Part shown: in pieces, positions 2,723-30,659 of the stretch | Position numbering within the stretch: the stretch's first letter is position 1 | Layout: each line of letters begins with the position of its first letter | NCBI GenBank assembly: GCA_031412575.1 | Contig: JANODG010000003.1 | Coordinates: 1 to 53,250, forward strand | Direction: 5' to 3' | DNA: 53,250 nt | Origin: Bdellovibrionales bacterium | GTDB taxonomy: Bacteria; Bdellovibrionota; Bdellovibrionia; Bdellovibrionales; UBA1609 | Position numbers and translations under genes: made by a program | The notes under the pieces: generated by a model | Database searches by the model: none | What the model was told of the DNA's origin: nothing | What the model saw: only the letters and a program-made list of their open reading frames with translations

Positions 2723-3268
2723 TCAAACCTGTACAGATATCTTTTTCCAATGATTTTTAAAATTATCTAAATATTCTTCACGTTTTCTGTACCCCCTTTG
2801 TCTTTCGATACGATTCGCTTGAAAGTAAGCCTTAAGCCCTAACATTTCAAAAGACGAAGTCAGCACCCTTGTAAACACTAATCCATCCCAGAATTTACCG
2901 AACTTAAATCCTTTTCTAGCTTTAGTGATTTTTCGGGCTAAAAGCGCGGAAAATGTTCTTAGGAAGTTTTTAAAAAATATTGGGTTTTTGAATCTTACTT
3001 TTAAATGCAAATGATTACCCATGTTTACAAAATCTAAGATTTCTATGAAATATTTTTTTGATCTTTCTTGCAGAACTGACTTTACTAAAAGTCGGTTTTT
3101 GTAAAAACTTAAATTATCTTTAGCTTTTGAAGACTTAAAAACCACGTGTGTGATTTTGCCGGGTACGATTGGACGCGCAACTTTTCGTTTAGATTTTTTA
3201 AGTACACCACCATGAGATAGCATCTTAAAAGACTTTAATTTATTTTTTGGGTCAAGACTCAATTGCAT
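2723..3268 (-). CDS. IS200/IS605-superfamily (COG1943) HUH Y1 transposase-like protein, RAYT-like
   Basis: HUH motif in GNHLHLKV, preceded by ITHVVFKS. FWDGLVFTRV and the C-terminal tyrosine motif YFQANRIE match the layout of single-domain Y1 transposases and REP-associated tyrosine transposases. No IS ends are evident in the flanks. Confidence 0.6.
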   Translation of the reverse strand: MQLSLDPKNKLKSFKMLSHGGVLKKSKRKVARPIVPGKITHVVFKSSKAKDNLSFYKNRLLVKSVLQERSKKYFIEILDFVNMGNHLHLKVRFKNPIFFKNFLRTFSALLARKITKARKGFKFGKFWDGLVFTRVLTSSFEMLGLKAYFQANRIERQRGYRKREEYLDNFKNHWKKISVQV

Positions 3269-14620: not shown

Positions 14621-14860
14621 ATCCCTATTTAACGACTTTCAAACCCAAAAGACAATTCTAGACCCAAACGAAACAAAGCCAAAAACCCAAACCAAAATAC
14701 TCACCCATCAAATCAAAATCCCAAAAAAACAAAAACCACCTAGACCAAACTCCTAAACTCCCATCCGGCCACAAAAAAATTTAATATTCCCCGAAATCCC
14801 TAATCCTAGAACGGAAGTAAAAGAAATCTTACATCTGTTGAAATTGAATTTTGTCCTTGG

Positions 14861-15076
14861 GTTTTGTTGGGCTTGGGTTTTGTGAGAGTTTGATTTAGCT
14901 TATAGATATATTTCTGAGTTCGGATTGGCGTGCAGTTTGCCCTATGAATAAAAAAAGAGGAACCATTTGGTTCCTCTTTTTTTATTCACTACGTACAAGC
15001 GCATGCCAACCGCATGTCTGAAGAAATAAATCTATAAGCTAAATCAAACTCTCACAAAACCCAAGCCCAACAAAAC
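14861..15076. repeat. 216-bp palindromic element (MITE/REPIN-like) with perfect 46-bp terminal inverted repeats
   Basis: 14861-14906 (GTTTTGTTGGGCTTGGGTTTTGTGAGAGTTTGATTTAGCTTATAGA) is the exact reverse complement of 15031-15076, checked base by base. Imperfect pairing continues inward to a central hairpin. Confidence 0.85.
14950..14983. terminator. Bidirectional intrinsic-terminator-like hairpin
   Basis: AAAAAAAGAGGAACCA-TT-TGGTTCCTCTTTTTTT. The GC core is GAGGAACC/GGTTCCTC, with an A7 run on one side and a T7 run on the other, so a U-tract follows the stem on either strand. It lies at the centre of the palindromic element between murD and ftsW. Confidence 0.7.
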
Positions 15077-15090
15077 TCACAGAACAAAGC

Positions 15091-16476
15091 CTATTTCAAC
15101 TGACGAACGATTTCTTTAAAATAGTTCCCACGTTCACGATAGTCATCAAACATATCAAAGCTCGAAGCCCCTGGTGATAACAGAACAGTGTCGTTGATTC
15201 TAGATTTTGAATAGGCCATGTGAACAGCTTCATCAAAAGTTCCAATCAAGAAAGTTTCACTGTAATCGCCAATGTCTCTGTTGATTTTTTCTTTCACTTC
15301 ACCGTAAAGAATCAAAGTTTTAACTTTCTTTCTAATTTCGTCTTTTAGCGGTGCGTAGTTCAAACTTGTGTCCTTACCACCCATGACTAAAATGATATTT
15401 TCATCAAAGGCTTTAAGTGCGCGCATAACTGCATGCACATTAGTCGCTTTAGAGTCGTTGTAAAATTCAACGCCACCAACTTTTCTGACGTACTCAAGAC
15501 GATGTTCAATACCAGTAAAAGAATCAATCACTTCTTGAATGGCTTCATGGGTTGCTCCATGTTCACGTACCGCAAGAATAGCCGCCATCATATTTTCAAT
15601 GGCATGAAATCCACGAAGCTTGATGTTTTTTACAGAAAACACTTCGATGTCTGGACCTGTTCTGACTTTAATTTCGTCGTTGATTTGAACAGCACCACCA
15701 ATGTTCATGATTTGCGGCTCTAAAGATGATTTTCTAGAAAAATAATAAATCACACCTCTTTGCACTGCCGGGTCACGAGCTAACTCAACCACCGCATTGT
15801 CATCGGCATTTAAGATGCTTGATGTTTCAGAACTCGTGTTAAGAAAAATCTTTCTTTTGGCATTGATGTAATCTTCCATAGATTTATGACGATCTAAATG
15901 GTTTTCCGCTAAGTTCATAAAGACAATATTTTTTGGTGCGAATTCTACAACATGTTCAAGCATAAAACTTGAAGCTTCAACGATCAACACATCTGCTTTT
16001 TGGTCTTCGTTGAAATACGTCACCATTGGTTTTCCGTAATTTCCACCAACCCAAACTTTTTTACCAGACTTTTGAAGCATTTCATGAATTAAAGATACAG
16101 TCGTTGTTTTACCGTTAGTCCCAGTCACAGCGATAATTGGCTCTTGCACGAAGCGAGAAGCGAATTCAAATTCCCCTGTCACTTGTACACCATTGCTTTT
16201 CGCATAATCGAAAATTTTAAGTTGCGGAGAAATTCCTGGGCTTAAAATAATTAAGTCTTGCTGCAAAAATATTTTAGGTGAATGATTTCCTAAATCAAAA
16301 TTGATTTGTAGGTCTTCAATTTCTTCTAAGTGATTAGCTAATTCTGCTTTTGATTTGTGATCGCTCACTGTAACAACAGCACCATTTTTAACTAAAAATC
16401 TAGCTAGGGAAACCCCGGTCTTTGCTAAACCAACAATAAGAATTTTTTTATCTTTTAATTCTGCTAAACTGTGCAT
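15091..16476 (-). CDS. murD: UDP-N-acetylmuramoylalanine--D-glutamate ligase
   Basis: N-terminal Rossmann motif (ILIVGLAKTGVS) and the Mur ligase P-loop VTGTNGKTTTVSL. dcw position. Confidence 0.95.
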   Translation of the reverse strand: MHSLAELKDKKILIVGLAKTGVSLARFLVKNGAVVTVSDHKSKAELANHLEEIEDLQINFDLGNHSPKIFLQQDLIILSPGISPQLKIFDYAKSNGVQVTGEFEFASRFVQEPIIAVTGTNGKTTTVSLIHEMLQKSGKKVWVGGNYGKPMVTYFNEDQKADVLIVEASSFMLEHVVEFAPKNIVFMNLAENHLDRHKSMEDYINAKRKIFLNTSSETSSILNADDNAVVELARDPAVQRGVIYYFSRKSSLEPQIMNIGGAVQINDEIKVRTGPDIEVFSVKNIKLRGFHAIENMMAAILAVREHGATHEAIQEVIDSFTGIEHRLEYVRKVGGVEFYNDSKATNVHAVMRALKAFDENIILVMGGKDTSLNYAPLKDEIRKKVKTLILYGEVKEKINRDIGDYSETFLIGTFDEAVHMAYSKSRINDTVLLSPGASSFDMFDDYRERGNYFKEIVRQLK

Positions 16477-19308: not shown

Positions 19309-20913
19309 TTACCCTTTAGCAATGAGTTTGCTGACTGTATCGTAATCGCTAAATTCTATGGTTTTATCTTTTAGGATTTGGTAATTTTCATGCCCTTTGC
19401 CTGCAATTAAAAGAACGTCATTTGGATCAATAAGATGGTTTAGTCCTAATTGAATGGCTTTCTTACGATCAGGTTCGACATAAATGTGACTGGATTTGAT
19501 ATTGATTGAGGTTTCGAACTTTTCATTTACGTCGAAGGCTTTTAAATCAGTGGGAACATTTTTAAATCCACTTAAAATTTGTTTTAAAATGACATTTGGA
19601 TTTTCACTTCGAGGATTGTCGTTTGTGATAATCTGAAAGTCCGAAAACTCTTCAGCAATTTGACCCATGATTGGCCTTTTTGTGTTGTCTCTGTCCCCGC
19701 CGCAGCCAAATACAACCCCCAACTTACCATTACATACTTGTCTTAAACTTTGTAAAGTTCGCTTAAGCGCATCAGGTGTATGAGCGTAATCCACAAATAC
19801 AGCCTTTGATTTTGTGTTTAAAACTTTTTGAAGTCGACCAGGAACGCCTAAAAAAGTTTTAGAGGAGTTTACAATTTTATCGGAAGGTAAATTTAATGCA
19901 TTTAAGGATAATACGGCCTGACACCAGTTTAACATTTGAAAATGTCCAAGGATTGGAATTTCAAAATCTAATGAATGAGTTTCTTCTTCAGGATTAAAAT
20001 TCAAAATAAGCGAAAATTTAAGTCCATTTAAGTTATGTTTTTTAAGAAAAACCAAGTTAAGTTTGCTGTTTTCATTTTTAGATTTTAACTGATGGTAGAG
20101 GCTAAGAATTTCAGTATTTTTATTAAGAGTTCTTTGGTCGTAAACTTCTAATAGAATTTCAACCTGTCCAAAATCTGGTAAATAATTTTTTACAAAATTG
20201 TCATTGTAATTTAAAACCGAAATTTTATTTTTTTTATTTGAATTCCTAAGAAGCTCTTCAAACAATTTAATTTTACTTAAATAGTAATGCTCCATCGTCT
20301 TGTGATAATCCAGATGATCATTTGTTAAATTAGAAAATATGGCAGCATCTAAAAATAAATCCTTCGCACGATTTTGATCTAAGGCGTGACTTGAGATTTC
20401 TAAGGCTACGGCTTTGGCTCCCGCTTCGCGCATTTGATCCAAGCGAGGGAATAACACGTCAGATCCCGGCGTAGTTAATTCTGTGGGCCATTTCTTCGTT
20501 TGATTTGAAATAGTTAAATGATGATCAATGGTTCCAAGAACTCCGCACGGTAAATTCGAATGATTTAAAATGTGCTCGACCATTAACGAAGTCGAAGTTT
20601 TACCGTTTGTTCCCGTGATCCCAACTAGAAACAAATCTTGATCTGGATTTTGTGATTTCAATTTCCATGCAGATGCCCAAGCTGAGCTAGAATCCTCTAC
20701 AACTAAAATCTCAAAATTATTTAAATCTTCGAAAAAGGAATTATCTTCGACAACAAAACAACTGCAGCCTTGCTGAACTACGGATTTTAAAAAATCATGA
20801 CCGTCGTGTTTCGTTCCACGTAAAGCAAAAAAAACAGAGTTTGAGTCTGCTTTCCTAGAGTCACTTACAAATGACTTGCTCAAATGCGACTTTAAAAAAT
20901 CTAAGCTTTTCAT
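19309..20913 (-). CDS. murE: UDP-N-acetylmuramoyl-L-alanyl-D-glutamate--2,6-diaminopimelate ligase
   Basis: ITGTNGKTSTSLM P-loop, and a DNPR motif (ITNDNPRSENP) indicating meso-DAP specificity. Confidence 0.95.
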   Translation of the reverse strand: MKSLDFLKSHLSKSFVSDSRKADSNSVFFALRGTKHDGHDFLKSVVQQGCSCFVVEDNSFFEDLNNFEILVVEDSSSAWASAWKLKSQNPDQDLFLVGITGTNGKTSTSLMVEHILNHSNLPCGVLGTIDHHLTISNQTKKWPTELTTPGSDVLFPRLDQMREAGAKAVALEISSHALDQNRAKDLFLDAAIFSNLTNDHLDYHKTMEHYYLSKIKLFEELLRNSNKKNKISVLNYNDNFVKNYLPDFGQVEILLEVYDQRTLNKNTEILSLYHQLKSKNENSKLNLVFLKKHNLNGLKFSLILNFNPEEETHSLDFEIPILGHFQMLNWCQAVLSLNALNLPSDKIVNSSKTFLGVPGRLQKVLNTKSKAVFVDYAHTPDALKRTLQSLRQVCNGKLGVVFGCGGDRDNTKRPIMGQIAEEFSDFQIITNDNPRSENPNVILKQILSGFKNVPTDLKAFDVNEKFETSINIKSSHIYVEPDRKKAIQLGLNHLIDPNDVLLIAGKGHENYQILKDKTIEFSDYDTVSKLIAKG

Positions 20914-21041
20914 TGTTTCACATTATCGTTAATTATTAGAGTAATGCAAATTTATCTTTTATCTGGGCGATATTACTCGCTTTTATTAAATATCCGCGAC
21001 TAATTATGACAGGACCTTGAGTTGACAGAAAGCAGTTTCAT

Positions 21042-21578
21042 TTGAATCATTCTAATATGAAGATTTGGTTGTCACTTTCATTTATTTTTTCTATCTGTCA
21101 GCCTTACGTTCAAGCAAATAGCTTTAAACACAATTTAATTAATAAAAAAATGGGAGGCCTTATGGGCGCTATTAGCCCTGTAACCACTGGAACTCTTCAC
21201 AACATCGAGGTTAAAAACATTAATAACGAGCTTATTGGTGAAATTATCATCCAGGGCACGTTTTCTAACCGTGAAGATAACTCTCCCATAAAGCCAAGCG
21301 AATTGCTTGAATATCCACAAAGGCGCGTGATTTCTGAACTGATCTCAGTCTCAGCTTCGGTTCAATTTAAATTCAAAGTGGTAAATATTAAAGCCGAAAT
21401 TATAGCCTCAAAGGATGAGCAAAAGGCATTGAATAGCGTCGCTAACGAGCTGGATAAAAACAAAGGCCTAAAAATATCAAAATCCGAGACTATCGTGCCT
21501 GGTAATCCAGAATTTAAAGCTGCTCTCGTGAAACATTTAAAATCGCAATATAACCTAGCAGCAGAATTCCTGCGATAA
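21042..21578 (+). CDS. Hypothetical secreted protein
   Basis: The ORF opens at TTG 21042. ATG 21057 (MKIWLSLSFIFSICQPYVQA) gives a cleaner signal peptide. No recognisable domain. Confidence 0.45.
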   Translation: MNHSNMKIWLSLSFIFSICQPYVQANSFKHNLINKKMGGLMGAISPVTTGTLHNIEVKNINNELIGEIIIQGTFSNREDNSPIKPSELLEYPQRRVISELISVSASVQFKFKVVNIKAEIIASKDEQKALNSVANELDKNKGLKISKSETIVPGNPEFKAALVKHLKSQYNLAAEFLR

Positions 21579-24859: not shown

Positions 24860-26403
24860 AATTACCTGATTTAGAAAATATGCCTCCTTTGGAGCGTCGG
24901 GAATTCTTAAAAAAATTAAGCGCCACACTTGCGACTTCGCCTTTGTTTTCAAACGCAATTAAAGTAACTTTGCTCGATATGCTTTTGGGATCTTCTGCTT
25001 CAGCACAAGTGAACAGTCCGATGAATTTTTTAGAGGTTAATTTTCGTGACCAGTGGGATTTCGGTTCTGTTTTTGTAGCTCCAAGTTTAGCTCGTAATTA
25101 TGAAAATATTCGTAATCAAACATCAATTTTCGAAATGCCAACTGCTGAAAGAAATAATTTTTACTTATCTCCTAGGGCTTCAGAACTTAGGCCTCACTTA
25201 GATCACATTGCCGTCATTGAAACTGGCGAGTGTGTTTTACCAGGAAACTCATCAGTGCACGGGCATGAGGCTGGTAACCCATTACGTTCACCGGGGCGCA
25301 CACAAACTTCTGGTGGTGGGAAAATTGATATGGCCACTGTAGATCGAAGACCCGGAGGAAGAGCTGCGGGGAATGAAGTTTTATACAGTTCGACTCCAAC
25401 TCCTGCAATTTTACACAACTACTATTCAAAAATGCAAAATCCCAACTTGCGAAATGGAACTTTACTTCGAAGTTCAATCAGACCAGACGTACACACGTAC
25501 TATCATTTCGAAGCAAATTTAGCGAATGCTCAATTGACAAGGTATTTTAGTAAAAGCACTTTTTTAAGTGCCTTTCAAAACGTAGGTGGTGTTCCAACTA
25601 GGCCGCCTGTAATAAAGCGCCACGGTAATGTCATTACAAGTATGCTTAAGAAATTAGATCAGCGTTTTATGCAAAGATCTTTGGCTGACACCAATCAAAG
25701 AAATAAACAAAATTTAAGTGTTGATGAATTTGCGAGGTTACTAAATGCCCAACCTGAAGTGATTCAGGTGGATTTAACGGCTGCGGAGTTGGCCGCGTGG
25801 CAAAATAATATTGGACCACAGCTTAATTGCGCCGGTGATGAAGCCTCAAACTGCACTCCAGCCCAAGGTGCATGGGGTGCTGGGGAAATCTTTGCCCACG
25901 CTTTTAAACTCTTCAGATCCGGAACCGTAAGAACAGTTGCTATCGACTTTGACATGACAGATGTACATTCTAATAGAACGCCGCTTTTGATGAACACGCA
26001 AGCTGAGCAAAGCGGAAGAACTTTAGCGCGAATGATTCAAAATTTAAAAGACAGTGGACTTTGGGAAAACACAATTATTGCAATGTACACTTTAGATGGA
26101 AGTCGTTCTCCGGTTTCGAATTCGACTGGTGAAAATACTAAAAACGCAATTGTTCTTGCCGGTGGAAAAATCAGAGGTGGCTATTACGGAGATGTTAGTC
26201 TTTCAACGAATGGCACTGTCACTTACTTTAGACCTAACGATTCTGGCCAACCTATAGCTCAAGGAAATACAGGTCGTGACATGAGAGTTCCTGCTGCTGA
26301 CATTTATAAAACGGTGGCTTCACTTTCGGGTGTTCCAATGAACATGATCGACAGCTTCGCAGATGTGCGCGCTGGGCGCATGTTAAGTTATTTAATACGT
26401 TAG
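24856..26403 (+). CDS. Twin-arginine-exported DUF1552-like protein
   Basis: ATG 24856 overlaps the upstream TGA (ATGA), with AGGAG 7 nt upstream. TAT motif ERREFLKKLSATLA. It is collinear with, but divergent from, the DUF1552 protein at 36523 (AVIETGE...VHGHEAG versus IVSGLQ...AGHHADA, and a C-terminal LAGGKIRGGYYGD versus VAGRGGGFKTGQHH). Confidence 0.6.
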   Translation: MKLPDLENMPPLERREFLKKLSATLATSPLFSNAIKVTLLDMLLGSSASAQVNSPMNFLEVNFRDQWDFGSVFVAPSLARNYENIRNQTSIFEMPTAERNNFYLSPRASELRPHLDHIAVIETGECVLPGNSSVHGHEAGNPLRSPGRTQTSGGGKIDMATVDRRPGGRAAGNEVLYSSTPTPAILHNYYSKMQNPNLRNGTLLRSSIRPDVHTYYHFEANLANAQLTRYFSKSTFLSAFQNVGGVPTRPPVIKRHGNVITSMLKKLDQRFMQRSLADTNQRNKQNLSVDEFARLLNAQPEVIQVDLTAAELAAWQNNIGPQLNCAGDEASNCTPAQGAWGAGEIFAHAFKLFRSGTVRTVAIDFDMTDVHSNRTPLLMNTQAEQSGRTLARMIQNLKDSGLWENTIIAMYTLDGSRSPVSNSTGENTKNAIVLAGGKIRGGYYGDVSLSTNGTVTYFRPNDSGQPIAQGNTGRDMRVPAADIYKTVASLSGVPMNMIDSFADVRAGRMLSYLIR

Positions 26404-26465
26404 GACTTGGAGCGTGATGTCTAGCGTCCTTATTTTCATATAAGATTATCAAAGGGTGTTCTTAT

Positions 26466-27218
26466 ATGAATAATTTCGATTTCAACTCAATTATCGACTT
26501 AGATAAAAATCAAATCGATTTTTATTTTAGCACTAGATTAAAAAACTCTTACGACCAAAAACAAGTTGAATTTATTAGACCATCCGCTGAAGAAATTATT
26601 CAGGCCGTACCTATGGAAACTTTATTTATTCCCTGGAAAGATTTATCGGATGGATTAAGACTAAGCAAATTAAATGATTATCAACCAAGAGTTGTTCAAG
26701 TTCAGCAACGCCGGGCAACTTGGTCTACTCGTCTCAAAAAAGACAATTACAAATCAATTATTGATCAACTGTTTCATTTTATTGAACGAAATCTTGCTGA
26801 CATTTACCGATACAAATTTTTGGAAGAATCTAATCCAAGCTTAGACATGCAAGCTTGCACTGCTTTACTCCAAAGACTTTTTCTGAATCAAGAGCCATTT
26901 CGGTTAATGCCTAAAATCAATCTTCCTGACCAAAAGATTTGCCTTGAAGTGTTTAACAAATACTTTCCTGAGCCTGAGTTTAAGGTTTCATATTACAGTA
27001 ATGAATTTTTAATTCAAAAAAGTGTAGGGGGCTTTCAATTCCTTGAAATTGGAGAACGTGGGGGAATAGAAAAGCAGTTTGAATCTGAAGATCTTCAAGA
27101 AGTGCAATTTGTAGCTTTTAAGAATATGAGTTCGATTGATTATGTGGTTGAAGATCGACAATTTGTTTTTGATTATAATCAGATTTATCATTTGAAGGAG
27201 TTTAGGGAAAAGGATTAG
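26466..27218 (+). CDS. Hypothetical cytoplasmic protein
   Basis: 250-aa ORF with no signal peptide and no motif I recognise. It is the last gene of the plus-strand island. Confidence 0.45.
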   Translation: MNNFDFNSIIDLDKNQIDFYFSTRLKNSYDQKQVEFIRPSAEEIIQAVPMETLFIPWKDLSDGLRLSKLNDYQPRVVQVQQRRATWSTRLKKDNYKSIIDQLFHFIERNLADIYRYKFLEESNPSLDMQACTALLQRLFLNQEPFRLMPKINLPDQKICLEVFNKYFPEPEFKVSYYSNEFLIQKSVGGFQFLEIGERGGIEKQFESEDLQEVQFVAFKNMSSIDYVVEDRQFVFDYNQIYHLKEFREKD

Positions 27219-27227
27219 TGGGTGGGG

Positions 27228-27419
27228 ACACTGTCTAGTTCACTCGTGCGCTTTGCTGTCTAGCACACTCGTGTGCACTTTGGGCGGCTACCGTTCAGTC
27301 CGCTTCGCTGGGACTTCCGTTCGCACGCCCAAGCACACTCGCTGGTGCTTTTCCTCCTGCGGAGGGCGCGCTGGAACTTTTCTTGCTGCGCAAGGCGGAA
27401 CTTTTCCCACTGCGTGGGG
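27228..27419. repeat. GC-rich repeat element, copy A (intergenic, immediately 3' of the ftsI stop)
   Basis: Modules in order: CTGTCTAGTTCACTCGTGCGC (27231-27251), CTGTCTAGCACACTCGTGTGCA (27256-27277), GGGCGGCT, CACTCGCTGG, then three CTTTTC-hairpin units. It stands out sharply against AT-rich flanks. The same module order recurs at 29632-29740. Confidence 0.85.
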
Positions 27420-29330
27420 CTATTCCAGCTGCACTAGAACTTTGGATTTGGAGTGAAGGTTTTCGCCCTCTTGGAAGATGACTTTTGAGACTAAGCCTTG
27501 GCCGTGAAATTTGACTTCGACAGGTTTGTTTTTAAGAATTCGTAAAACTTCACGGACTGTTAATCCATGTAAAGAGTCTGTTGTTGATTTTGCGAGAGGC
27601 GTATATTTACAGTCTTTGTTTTTACAGTCTAATAATTCAGACGGCATAATGTTCGTCGGAATTATGTTTTCTTTGTTCATTAAAAATTGGGCGACCTTTG
27701 AAAACACAGGCGCTGCTGCCTCTGATCCATAGTAATTTTTTTCGGGCTCATCAATTCCTATATAAATAATAAATTTTGGTTTTTCTGCGGGAATCATTCC
27801 TACAAAAGAACTTAAATATTTATCTTGGTGATATCCACCTTTTTCTAAATTCACTTTATTTGCAGTTCCAGTTTTTCCGGCAACTAAGTAGCCCTCGACT
27901 GACGCATTAAATCCTGTGCCCCCGTCTTGAGTCACTTCGGTCAACATGGCTTTTAAAGTTTGCGCAGTTTCTTTAGTCATCACTCGCCGTTGAACTTTTT
28001 CAACTTCTAAATCCATTCCTGAAGCGGCAACTACACTTTCCACCAAGTAAGGCTGTTTCCACATGCCATCACTGGCAATCGCAAGATAAGCTGACGCTAC
28101 TTGAATGGGTGTCGCCGTAAAGCCATGTCCAAAAGATGCTGAAGCCAACATGTGGCTTGGCCATCTTTGCTTACGATATATTCCTTTGGATTCCCCCGGA
28201 AAATCTACTTTGGTTTTTTCCCCAAATCCAAGTTGGTTATAAAACGCACGAGTTTTTTGCTCGCCCACGTTCAAAGCCATTTGAGTTAAAACGACGTTCG
28301 ATGAAACTTTTAATCCTTCGGTTAACGTCATCGTCTGGCACTTAATTTTTTTTGCATCGGAAATAACTCTTCGACCTAATTTAATTTTACCATCAAGGCA
28401 CGCAAATTCACTTCCTGGTCTAAAAACTTTATTTTCTAAAGCGGCGCCAACAGCAAAAGTCTTTATCGTGCTTCCTTGCTCTTGAGCTTCTGTAAAAACT
28501 AAATTCTTTTTAAAAATACCTTTATCATAAATAGCTCGATTTAAATCATAGGTCGGCCACTGTGCCGAAGCCCGCACAGCCCCAGTTTCAACGTCTAAAA
28601 TCAACCCATAGGCAGACTTCGCTTCATGATCTTCCATGGCGCGCTTTAATTGAATTTCCAAAAAACGTTGGTATTCAGAATCTATAGTTAAAAATAAATC
28701 CTGACCCTCTGGAGGCTTATTATATTGTTCGGGGTCCATAAACAGTGGACGACCTTTAGCGTCTCTGGAAACAATAAGTTCCATGTCTTTTCCGGCTAGG
28801 AAATTATTGTACTGATACTCTAGACCCTCTAAGCCTCGCCCATCGGTGCCGACAAACCCAATTACTGAAGATAAAATATCGCGGCCTGGATACTGACGAT
28901 TAGGTTCACTGACAAAATGAATTCCGCTGAAGTTTGCGTTTTCTATTTCTTTTTTTAATTGCGGAGAGATCTTCCGCTTTAACCAAACGAATCTAGATTT
29001 TCTTCGCATCTTATATTCTAATGTTTTCGGATGCGCTTTTAATAGTCTTGCAATTCGACTTGCCGCAAGCCTTGGGTTTTTGATGTTCTGCGGATCTGCA
29101 AAAACAGAATACGTGGGTTCGTTAATGGCGAGTTCTTTGTTCTTTCGATCGTAGATGCGACCTCTGCGTGCTTGAACTTTAACGGTTTTAAAAAACTGGA
29201 TCTTTTTGTATTCGTCTAATCTTTTGTGAGGCAAAATTTGTATATTTGCCCCTTGGCCTAGGATCATGCAAAATATCACAAGCTTGAGTAGAAAAAAAAG
29301 ATGTATGAAATGCTTGATCCTCATACTCAT
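27420..29330 (-). CDS. ftsI: Peptidoglycan D,D-transpeptidase FtsI (class B PBP)
   Basis: N-terminal TM helix plus SxxK (STIK), SxN (SSN) and KTG (AGKTGTA) motifs. dcw position after ftsL. Confidence 0.93.
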   Translation of the reverse strand: MSMRIKHFIHLFFLLKLVIFCMILGQGANIQILPHKRLDEYKKIQFFKTVKVQARRGRIYDRKNKELAINEPTYSVFADPQNIKNPRLAASRIARLLKAHPKTLEYKMRRKSRFVWLKRKISPQLKKEIENANFSGIHFVSEPNRQYPGRDILSSVIGFVGTDGRGLEGLEYQYNNFLAGKDMELIVSRDAKGRPLFMDPEQYNKPPEGQDLFLTIDSEYQRFLEIQLKRAMEDHEAKSAYGLILDVETGAVRASAQWPTYDLNRAIYDKGIFKKNLVFTEAQEQGSTIKTFAVGAALENKVFRPGSEFACLDGKIKLGRRVISDAKKIKCQTMTLTEGLKVSSNVVLTQMALNVGEQKTRAFYNQLGFGEKTKVDFPGESKGIYRKQRWPSHMLASASFGHGFTATPIQVASAYLAIASDGMWKQPYLVESVVAASGMDLEVEKVQRRVMTKETAQTLKAMLTEVTQDGGTGFNASVEGYLVAGKTGTANKVNLEKGGYHQDKYLSSFVGMIPAEKPKFIIYIGIDEPEKNYYGSEAAAPVFSKVAQFLMNKENIIPTNIMPSELLDCKNKDCKYTPLAKSTTDSLHGLTVREVLRILKNKPVEVKFHGQGLVSKVIFQEGENLHSKSKVLVQLE

Positions 29331-29341
29331 AATCGTACACC

Positions 29342-29764
29342 TTATTGTTTGACCATAAAAGATGTAGAGCCAATGTTAATCACTTTACCGACCTGATATC
29401 CTTTAATAGAATATCTGTTCAAAGCTAGACCCGAAATTTCGCGATCTGAAACTTTCTTAGAATAATCGGTATAAAGCGTCCTAAATTCGTCATCATGAAT
29501 TTTAAATTCAGACGATAATTTGTAGATCTCATAAGACTTCCGCTTTAACTCCATTCGAGTAAATAAAACGGACATCATGGAAATTAAAAAAATAAATAAA
29601 GAGAGGAAGAATTTGATGCCGAGTTTATTGTGATCACTGTCTAGTTCACTCGTGCGCATTTTACTTTGATCGCTGTCTAGTTCACTCGTGCGCATTTCGG
29701 GCGGCTTCGCGCGCCCGCGCACTCGCTGGAACTTTTCTTCATTTGTATTTATTTCGTTTTTCAT
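29342..29764 (-). CDS. ftsL: Cell division protein FtsL with a repeat-encoded cytoplasmic tail
   Basis: Small bitopic protein (TM helix FFLSLFIFLISMMSVLF followed by a coiled-coil-like region) between rsmH and ftsI. The ORF opens at TTG 29782. ATG at 29762-29764 has AAGGAG 6 nt upstream, so I prefer it. Confidence 0.75.
   Translation of the reverse strand: MKNEINTNEEKFQRVRGRAKPPEMRTSELDSDQSKMRTSELDSDHNKLGIKFFLSLFIFLISMMSVLFTRMELKRKSYEIYKLSSEFKIHDDEFRTLYTDYSKKVSDREISGLALNRYSIKGYQVGKVINIGSTSFMVKQ
29632..29740. repeat. GC-rich repeat element, copy B (inside the ftsL 5' coding region)
   Basis: CTGTCTAGTTCACTCGTGCGCA at 29637-29658 and again at 29673-29694 (36-bp period), then GGGCGGCT, CACTCGCTGG and AACTTTTCTT. 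Order and orientation match copy A. Confidence 0.85.
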
Positions 29765-30659
29765 TTTTGACTCCTTTTTCAAAAACTCGAAGTTGGGCGC
29801 TTCGTGATCGGATATTACTTTCGACTTCTGATCTTTGAGGCTTTATGACTTTTTTTGTGACCGGAAATCCGATTTGTGAGTTCTTAAAAATATATTTCAC
29901 AATTCGGTCCTCCAGCGAGTGAAAAGTTATCACGAGCAAACGACCATCTTCATTTAAAAATTCCATAATTTCTGGTAGTGATTTTTTTAAGCCTTGGATT
30001 TCATTATTCACAGCCATTCTTAAGGCTAAAAAATATCTGGTGGCAGGATGTGAACCTTTTATTCTCCAACCCTCTTTGACTTCAATTAAGTTTGATAACT
30101 GCAATGTAGTTTTGAAGGGTTGAATCCCGCGTTGTGATATAATTTCTTTCGTCACGCGGTAAGGATTATAGACTTCGCCTAATTCTTTAAAAATTTCATT
30201 TAACTGATCTTCGTCATATTCGTTGATGATATTTTCTGCCGACAACACTTGTGACTGATTCATTCGCATGTCTAATGGACCATCTTTATAAAAACTAAAT
30301 CCACGGTCTTGATCATCTAGCTGGGGTGAACTCACGCCTAGATCCATCATGATCAAATCAAATTTTTGTTTAACATGATTTTTATCTGCAAAAGATTTCC
30401 AATCGTGAAAACTTGAGTGAATAAACTGACTTCGTTCGGATAGACCCAGATCATAAAATTTACTTTGAGTGTCTTTGATCGCTTGAATGTCTTGATCAAC
30501 GCCGAAACAAAATAAATTTTTATATTTATTCATGAAGGCCATCGCATGACCGCCTCGGCCTAAGGTCAGATCTAAATAAGTTTGTGGTTCTGCCTTTAAA
30601 CCTTGAGCTTGTTCTAAACACTCTTCTAATAAAACTGGGATATGTAAGTAACTCATCAC
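29739..30659 (-). CDS. rsmH: 16S rRNA (cytosine1402-N4)-methyltransferase
   Basis: HIPVLLEECLE, DLTLGRGGH, MDLGVSSPQLD and FHSLEDRIVK motifs. Confidence 0.95.
   Translation of the reverse strand: MMSYLHIPVLLEECLEQAQGLKAEPQTYLDLTLGRGGHAMAFMNKYKNLFCFGVDQDIQAIKDTQSKFYDLGLSERSQFIHSSFHDWKSFADKNHVKQKFDLIMMDLGVSSPQLDDQDRGFSFYKDGPLDMRMNQSQVLSAENIINEYDEDQLNEIFKELGEVYNPYRVTKEIISQRGIQPFKTTLQLSNLIEVKEGWRIKGSHPATRYFLALRMAVNNEIQGLKKSLPEIMEFLNEDGRLLVITFHSLEDRIVKYIFKNSQIGFPVTKKVIKPQRSEVESNIRSRSAQLRVFEKGVKNEKRNKYK

Follow-up and report, generated by a model that had tools for sequence, protein, structure and literature searches.

The three mini-hairpins at the 3' end of ftsI are the terminal 3' cassettes of a dispersed mosaic repeat and not a device made for ftsI. 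The hairpins lie in a window of 53,250 nt, which is the whole stretch of DNA analysed here, and the genome that contains it (G000) comprises 3.0 Mb in 254 contigs and is apparently a metagenome-assembled genome (MAG). A census of this genome with BLAST and regular expressions revealed about 70 loci of the repeat, with 93 complete cores running from an A box to an L box. In our estimation, with a probability of roughly 0.6, the three hairpins belong to a single copy of an interspersed repeat of the REP/BIME/BOX/RPE kind that is GC-rich, mosaic and genus-specific; it would have a mobile origin and possibly a secondary role as a 3'-UTR hairpin element.

The repeat forms a family of structured interspersed repeats that had not been described, in a lineage of predatory bacteria known only from metagenomes. 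The case is unusually clean: all four helices covary extensively with the loops fixed, the number of cassettes is variable and neighbouring stems are never shared, and the elements abut genuine stop codons in the gene sense. For annotation, the family explains the GC-rich islands, contig breaks, spurious ORFs (such as 27253-27456) and odd peptide insertions found in the genus, and it warns against taking the ftsI hairpins for a cell-division control element.

The repeat copies at ftsI and ftsL

An earlier note on this DNA had described three CTTTTC-stem-TGC-stem units at the ftsI end, and the sequence matches this description exactly, including the positions (Table 1). Each hairpin has CTTTTC before it and GC after it; the outer C-G pair, the TGC loop and the 5' CTTTTC are the same in all three units, as had been noted. 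The statement that all four inner pairs differ between the units has to be corrected, as the loop-closing C-G pair is identical in the three and only the three middle pairs vary. The pattern CTTTTCNNNNTGCNNNNGGC has three matches in the window versus none in 100 shuffles.

The array was also placed correctly in the convergent gap between ftsI and the gene starting at 26466. This gap is 201 bp long, has a G+C content of ~60% versus 37% for the genome, and is occupied by the repeat in its entirety: the stop of the convergent ORF lies 12 nt before the first A box, and at the other end the native ftsI stop codon abuts the repeat (copy A). The TAG stop (minus strand, 27420-27422) shares one base with the terminal GC of the array, the C at 27420 being the complement of the G in TAG. 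Two plus-strand ORFs, 27253-27456 (67 aa) and 27273-27437 (54 aa), lie wholly inside the GC-rich repeat, whose composition is poor in stops, and have most likely arisen as artefacts of this.

In the plus-strand orientation of the window, the repeat consists of an A box (CTGTCTAGTTCACTCG, also written (C)TGTCTAGTTCACTCG), the helices P0, P1 and P2, an L box (CTCGCTGGAACTTTTC) and zero to three mini-hairpins. The A box is followed by a variable P1 arm, a short linker, P2 (GGGCG, a loop or a nested hairpin, CGCCC), the complementary P1 arm and the L box. P0 is formed by pairing of the A box with the L box (AGTTC with GAACT). The internal loops (ACTCG / CT(T)CGCTG) are conserved, and P1 is wholly different between subfamilies with its complementarity kept. 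A cassette consists of a spacer ending in RRCTTTTC and the hairpin C NNN C-TGC-G NNN G-GC. Copies are arranged singly, in tandem, head to head, nested, or in frame inside ORFs; inserts nested in the P2 loop and chimeric copies were also found. Head-to-head pairs occur on contigs C54, C115, C185 and C171, the majority of copies being single or in direct tandem. In a REPIN, a doublet of inverted REPs is the unit that replicates.

Table 1. Positions of the repeat modules and neighbouring genes in the window, and of ORFs elsewhere in G000 that carry in-frame copies.
Feature	Position	Strand	Description
Convergent ORF	26466..27218	+	250 aa; no Pfam match
Truncated 5' half-unit, copy A	27231..27255	+	A box CTGTCTAGTTCACTCG, P1 5' arm TGCGC, TTTG
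Complete core, copy A	27256..27353	+	covariance model R1: 68.3 bits, E = 1e-13
A box of copy A core	27256-27271	+	variant CTAGCACAC
P0 of copy A	27262-27266 with 27345-27349	+	AGCAC with GTGCT
P1 of copy A	27272-27276 with 27333-27337	+	TGTGC with GCACA
P2 of copy A	27282-27286 with 27326-27330	+	GGGCG with CGCCC
Nested hairpin insert, copy A	27290-27323	+	
L box of copy A	27338-27353	+	CTCGCTGGTGCTTTTC
Mini-hairpin 1	27353..27365	+	CCTCC TGC GGAGG (minus strand CCTCC GCA GGAGG); DNA fold -4.6 kcal/mol
Spacer of unit 2	27366..27381	+	partial L box GCGCGCTGGAACTTTT; 29-nt unit, 29-nt tandem period
Mini-hairpin 2	27382..27394	+	CTTGC TGC GCAAG
Spacer of unit 3	27395..27405	+	GCGGAACTTTT; 24-nt unit
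Mini-hairpin 3 and terminal GC	27406..27420	+	CCCAC TGC GTGGG; commonest stem type genome-wide
ftsI	27420..29330	-	class-B PBP; Transpeptidase and PBP_dimer domains
Copy B	29637..29737	+	A-box half-unit and core 29673-29737, without mini-hairpin; R1 86.8 bits
ORF with in-frame copy	C88:26167-27372		
ORF with in-frame copy	C140:6545-8869		
ORFs with in-frame copies	C111:18447-19628 and 19606-21078		

As for the second copy in the window (copy B), it lies in frame on the minus strand within the N-terminus of ftsL. The 5' region of ftsL (29617-29737) contains a 36-bp tandem duplication of the A-box half, and the peptide MRTSELDSD occurs twice in FtsL. The ftsL copy is shared with the sister species G004, where it is orthologous, and with G001, where it takes the form of an array. 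In the G004 orthologue the 3' half comes from another subfamily, P1 is unpaired and the L box is read in a different frame. What is conserved at ftsL is therefore the nucleic-acid element and not the peptide.

Other in-frame copies were found on the gene-sense strand in two ORFs of contig C111 and mid-protein in ORFs of 401 aa and 774 aa. A single open frame runs through the A box (..SELD..). The Rickettsia palindromic elements (RPE) are palindromic repeats tolerated in frame in protein-coding genes. The mosaic repeat is likewise palindromic and occurs in frame within ORFs, including ftsL, and these copies also lie in otherwise intact protein-coding genes. It differs from RPE in that most copies are intergenic and anchored to stop codons, and in that one A-box frame is open.

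Covariation and occurrence in the genus

Sites of mini-hairpins were collected by their 5' flank (CTTTTC) only. Among the 119 positions that follow the CTTTTC of the element in G000, a TGC loop is present at 98, a perfect 5-bp hairpin at 54, and a hairpin with four of the five pairs at a further 35, so that the stems of other genomic copies, whose failure to pair would have spoken against selection on structure, are for the most part complementary. The perfect hairpins with a TGC loop (63) represent 12 stem types, whereas any other loop sequence yields at most five perfect hairpins.

In the alignment of mini-hairpins, 87.8% of cells are paired versus 63.4% in shuffles, and the covariation score is 0.586 versus 0.130, a value reached by none of 500 shuffles; controls with the alignment slid scored at most 0.125. 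Compensatory changes are present in the three middle pairs; the outer pair is fixed, and so is the loop-closing C-G pair, which is nearly invariant genome-wide. As for the core, the RNAalifold program independently predicts P0, P1 and P2, and the MAFFT-based core alignment gives 91.2% of paired cells (76.3% in shuffles) and a covariation score of 0.309 versus 0.098, again reached by 0 of 500 shuffles. In addition, a covariance model (R1) was built, and 66 R1 hits, mostly copies from sister species, were aligned with it. Here 94% of cells are paired, 12 of 16 pairs show compensatory changes, and the score is 0.406 versus 0.130 (0 of 500 shuffles). Since this last alignment was fitted to the model, it is biased towards the structure; the MAFFT-based result agrees with it. 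The variants of the A box and L box covary as well (TTC/GAA, CAC/GTG, CTC/GAG). Pairing is constrained, and sequence is not, across the whole element. The proposal of the earlier note that selection acts on structure rather than sequence is thereby borne out by the compensatory changes at three pairs and by genome-wide scores above those of the controls.

Variants of the flank travel with particular stems, for example GGAGCTTTTC with GTCC. Therefore, much of the stem diversity comes from the copying, as whole units, of several old sub-lineages, rather than from numerous independent double mutations made in place. Among the 23 pairs of adjacent cassettes in the genome, including those of the window (27353-27418), none has the same stem in both members, with 3.3 expected (p about 0.03). 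Selection against mis-pairing or slippage between units could account for neighbours with different stems.

The repeat is restricted to one genus. The model R1 matches 4 of 109 genomes of the family, all of them in one uncultured Bdellovibrionales genus (4 of its 5 species), and none of 104 other genomes of the family. The exact L box is present in 57, 22, 5, 4 and 0 copies in the five species of the genus, the sister species without the element being G002, and is absent from 36 genomes of 34 other genera. G000 and G004 each carry roughly 50-90 copies of the element. Among 185,579 species, the pattern running from A box to L box was found only in the Bdellovibrionales MAGs GFS_9291 and JTS-AC215. 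Searches with this pattern gave no matches in metagenome contigs or viral contigs, a search with the 29-mer of the ftsI end gave none in metagenome contigs, and the same FtsI protein was not found in other assemblies. According to the Rfam analysis, the window contains no match at the gathering score, and the element matches no Rfam family; at E <= 10, the region 27150-27500 gives only a chance snoRNA hit, which lies outside the element. A literature search on REP-like repeats of Bdellovibrio returned nothing relevant, and no description of the mosaic repeat family was found.

Mini-hairpins are also present in the sister species G004 (12), G003 (3) and G001 (1), and their stem types are shared; therefore, the cassette is ancestral and was expanded in G000. 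At least five G004 copies (L047, L051, L055, L056, L060) have the module CAAC(T/G)TTTGCAAGGCGAATGACAAGGCTTG after the L box, which occupies in G004 the place that mini-hairpins hold in G000.

The copy at ftsI is not shared within the genus. The C-terminus of FtsI ends at the same residue (QLE* or QLD*) in the three closest of the four sister species, and no element is present downstream of ftsI in any of the four. The earlier description of the hairpins as an ftsI-associated array thus fails on two counts, these bare ftsI ends and the 93 cores dispersed in G000. A similar situation was found at pnp. In G000 (C171:2755-3010) the TAA stop of this gene is directly followed by two elements, head to head at their A boxes; the pnp 3' ends of the four sister species have no element, and the spacers that follow them are AT-rich, one containing a normal terminator. 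The final codon of pnp encodes Ala in G000 and His in the three closest sisters, the change lying exactly at the junction. Orthologous ftsI and pnp 3' ends thus show presence/absence polymorphism and, since these ends lack the element in the sisters, copy A is a lineage-specific insertion. The mobility of the element is read from presence and absence only, as the comparison yielded no empty site alignable on both sides, the downstream neighbours being different.

Placement at gene ends and the likely folding strand

The position of the elements relative to genes was assessed with ORFs of at least 90 aa as gene proxies. In 67 of 87 elements the gene next to the hairpin/L end lies on the opposite strand, with its stop codon towards the element (p = 4e-7), and in 26 of these 67 the gap between element and stop is no more than 2 nt. 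The strand that reads GAAAAG, which is the minus strand in the window, is the sense strand of the abutted gene in 77% of copies, the remaining 20 of 87 having the opposite orientation. Abutting junctions read TAA followed by a GC-hairpin, TAG followed by a C-hairpin, or TA followed by GAAAAG. The same bias was detected in a sample of 34 elements of G004 (25 versus 8), in which nine elements lie within 6 nt of a stop codon, most of them without mini-hairpins. In convergent gaps the element takes up all of the space, as on contigs C3, C233, C96 and C5.

The TA or TAA of these junctions is a genuine stop in 21 of 26 cases overall and in 17 of 20 at hairpin ends, and among the 59 elements without an abutting ORF a TA-type junction is present in only 5. 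Stop usage is also shifted: TAG terminates 46% of the element-abutting genes versus 22% of genes genome-wide (p = 0.006), and TGA terminates 2 of the 58 genes with an element within 120 nt versus 15% genome-wide. A plain TA/TAA target site combined with purifying selection was considered as a cause and rejected, TA junctions being nearly confined to real stops. Since this model fails, the abutment of stop codons points either to function or to an unrecognised way of recognising gene ends. Should the anchoring turn out to have a mechanism behind it, the family would offer a tractable example of how repeats reach gene ends or are retained there.

The earlier note had also suggested a terminator or 3'-stabiliser array, and the two halves of this suggestion fared differently. 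As a canonical intrinsic terminator the array fails, because no T-run follows the hairpins on either strand. A scan of positions 26300-30000 for intrinsic terminators found no site in the element (27219-27419) on either strand, and what comes after the hairpins on the ftsI strand is GAAAAG. A role as a 3'-UTR stabiliser or barrier is possible, as it would fit the family-wide placement right after stop codons in the gene sense. In the family as a whole, GC-rich hairpins just after stop codons resemble intrinsic terminators, as does the plus-strand P0-P2 hairpin followed by CTTTTC (or by CTTTTCTTT in G004), but no U-run follows any gene-sense hairpin, and in 77% of copies the U-rich side points in the wrong direction. 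Canonical terminators are often located beside elements. Terminator-like motifs were detected downstream of 12% of genes with an element and 10% of genes without, figures that are uninformative as to whether the element replaces terminators.

As for the strand that folds, the loops on the gene-sense strand (minus in the window) are GCA, GAA or GTA closed by C-G, and the count of C(GNA)G triloops is 85 for the GAAAAG strand versus 3 for the other. The G.T wobbles in mini-hairpins favour the GAAAAG strand by 20 to 5 in copies that are not independent, and the wobble pairs of P1 show no strand bias (7 versus 7). It has been shown that d(GNA) loops closed by C-G form exceptionally stable DNA mini-hairpins (PMC3201870, PMC13037366). 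The loops of the element on the GAAAAG strand are of this d(GCGAAGC)/d(GNA) type; the motif in these papers is a physico-chemical one and not a genetic element, and its relevance to the repeat is our inference. Together, the asymmetries of triloops and mini-hairpin wobbles hint at a single-stranded DNA form.

Origin and possible role of the repeat

The preferred reading of the repeat as an element of mobile origin can be set out as follows. The element would spread, or would once have spread, as DNA through a folded single strand, likely the one with C(GCA)G and C(GAA)G triloops. The covariation would then have arisen because several old master lineages were under selection to stay foldable as they were copied. 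At ftsI, a lineage-specific insertion would have occurred directly after the native stop codon, and copy A would now be transcribed as the 3' UTR of the mraZ-rsmH-ftsL-ftsI unit. There the hairpins would probably act as a barrier to 3'-to-5' exonucleases or to read-through between the convergent units; this would be a secondary role and not the reason for their being. Such a role at ftsI is plausible, judged from the arrangement of the sequence, because the array would be both the 3' UTR and the only structured sequence between the two convergent units.

A different weight is given to the same placement by the main rival explanation, which we regard as rather unlikely. It holds that the family is primarily a functional cis-acting RNA, namely a 3'-UTR signal after stop codons (a factor-dependent terminator, a site of RNase processing or stabilisation, or a hairpin tuning translation or ribosome release), which was multiplied because it is useful, the ftsI array being one working instance. 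This explanation is kept alive by the orientation bias (77% of copies in the gene sense, 26 of 67 within 2 nt of the stop, and the repetition of the bias in G004), by TA junctions that are nearly always genuine stops, and by conserved internal loops between covarying helices, which resemble a structure recognised by protein or RNA. Unpaired loops that are conserved next to hypervariable helices characterise functional RNAs or structures bound by protein more than they do a decaying MITE, and speak against the mobile reading. The filled convergent gaps also favour a functional signal, as does the gap between ftsI and the 26466 gene, which has no canonical terminator. In E. coli, about half of the REPs are reported to be no more than 15 nt from a stop codon and to modulate translation. 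On the other hand, gene-sense hairpins have no U-tract after them, elements often adjoin canonical terminators and do not replace them, and terminator-like motifs are about equally frequent with and without an element. The absence of copies from orthologous gene ends of sister species, and of any element from one species of the genus, also weakens the case, as do the copies in frame inside ORFs, the 20 of 87 in the opposite orientation, and the GNA triloops, which are a motif of DNA stability.

A more specific proposal, which seems to us quite unlikely, is that of a stop-anchored system. In it, GNA-triloop cassettes with interchangeable stems would be added or kept at the 3' boundary of coding sequences, in the gene sense, by a mechanism that recognises the end of a gene and not a DNA word. 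This mechanism would be either a transcription- or translation-coupled insertion of single strands, or a genus-specific, factor-dependent process, for forming 3' ends or releasing ribosomes, in which the conserved ACUCG / CUCGCUG loops serve as a protein handle.

Mobilisation by a known kind of transposase was also considered. PATE, which are derived from IS200/IS605, have similar subterminal hairpins at both ends, produce no target-site duplication, insert 3' of a fixed short target and have a TnpA partner. In the mosaic element the two ends differ (mini-hairpins versus the P0-P2 hairpin), and a partner TnpA was not found. It is improbable that the repeat belongs to either of two such types, namely REP/REPIN families that a RAYT mobilises or PATE whose single-stranded hairpins are acted on by a Y1 HUH transposase. 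GC-rich hairpins beside a conserved short flank, the head-to-head doublets, the lack of target-site duplications and the strand asymmetry of the loops, which suits a single-stranded substrate, would all be expected of such a family. Moreover, Y1_Tnp-like ORFs number 2 in G000, 5 in G004 and 8 in G001, and are missing from G002, which also has no element. However, G003 contains the element and gives no Y1 hit, and three helices with conserved internal loops are unlike the single hairpin of a REP. Searches for terminal inverted repeats, target-site duplications and a linked transposase of the mosaic element found none.

The search with PF01797 gave two hits in G000, and neither gene is flanked by the mosaic element. 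One of them, a Y1_Tnp/RAYT-like ORF at 4047-4685 of contig C123 (locus L012, 3945-4715), lies between inverted copies of GGTGCCAGGTTCCGAATGCTGG, a 22-nt repeat with 39 copies in G000 and none in the window. This ORF and GGTGCCAGGTTCCGAATGCTGG are a classical REP-RAYT pair, separate from the mosaic element. The only Y1/RAYT-like gene found with repeats on its flanks thus has a repeat of its own, and no RAYT gene lying between copies of the mosaic element, as the REPIN/RAYT class would have, was found. Mosaic elements directly adjoin the GGTGCCAGGTTCCGAATGCTGG repeat at least twice (C208, C34). The other hit, the Y1_Tnp-like ORF 2723-3268 in the window (minus strand, 181 aa), scores 23.4 bits with PF01797 and 17-18 bits with the NCBIfam IS200 and REP-tyrosine-transposase models, far below their cut-offs of 55-80, and no flanking repeats were seen around it.

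Among known families, REP/BIME and REPIN/RAYT are short, GC-rich, hairpin-forming interspersed repeats with mosaic modules located at gene 3' ends (PMC3116915, PMC3337134). The mosaic repeat resembles them in its single, tandem and inverted-doublet copies, in its mostly intergenic location at gene 3' ends and in its vertical inheritance within a lineage. It differs in lacking a RAYT flanked by its copies, in having three helices, conserved loops and hypervariable stems instead of one imperfect palindrome, and in starting at the stop codon itself.

The repeat can also be compared with the BOX elements of Streptococcus pneumoniae, which have the structure boxA-(boxB)n-boxC. Each of the two is built of modules, a small one of which, internal or terminal, varies in number; each folds stably, lies between genes and lacks a known transposase. 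There is no sequence relation between them, and in the mosaic repeat the module of variable number is a hairpin of 13 nt with a stem that changes from one unit to the next.

A terminator or stabiliser evolved specifically for ftsI would suit the position right after the ftsI stop in a convergent gap with no other terminator-like motif, but it is contradicted by the genome-wide census, with identical cassettes at dozens of unrelated genes, and by sister-species ftsI ends without cassettes, and is scarcely tenable. It is equally hard to credit that the array arose in the assembly of a fragmented MAG, as an artefact or through a chimeric join between repeat copies: several of the 254 contigs do break inside the repeat, but the array lies mid-way in the longest contig between intact ORFs, and the same modules are present in independent assemblies of sister species.

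In addition, the window contains at 14820-15117 an inverted repeat whose arms of 96 nt have 86% complementarity and are separated by 106 nt; it has no relation to the mosaic repeat.
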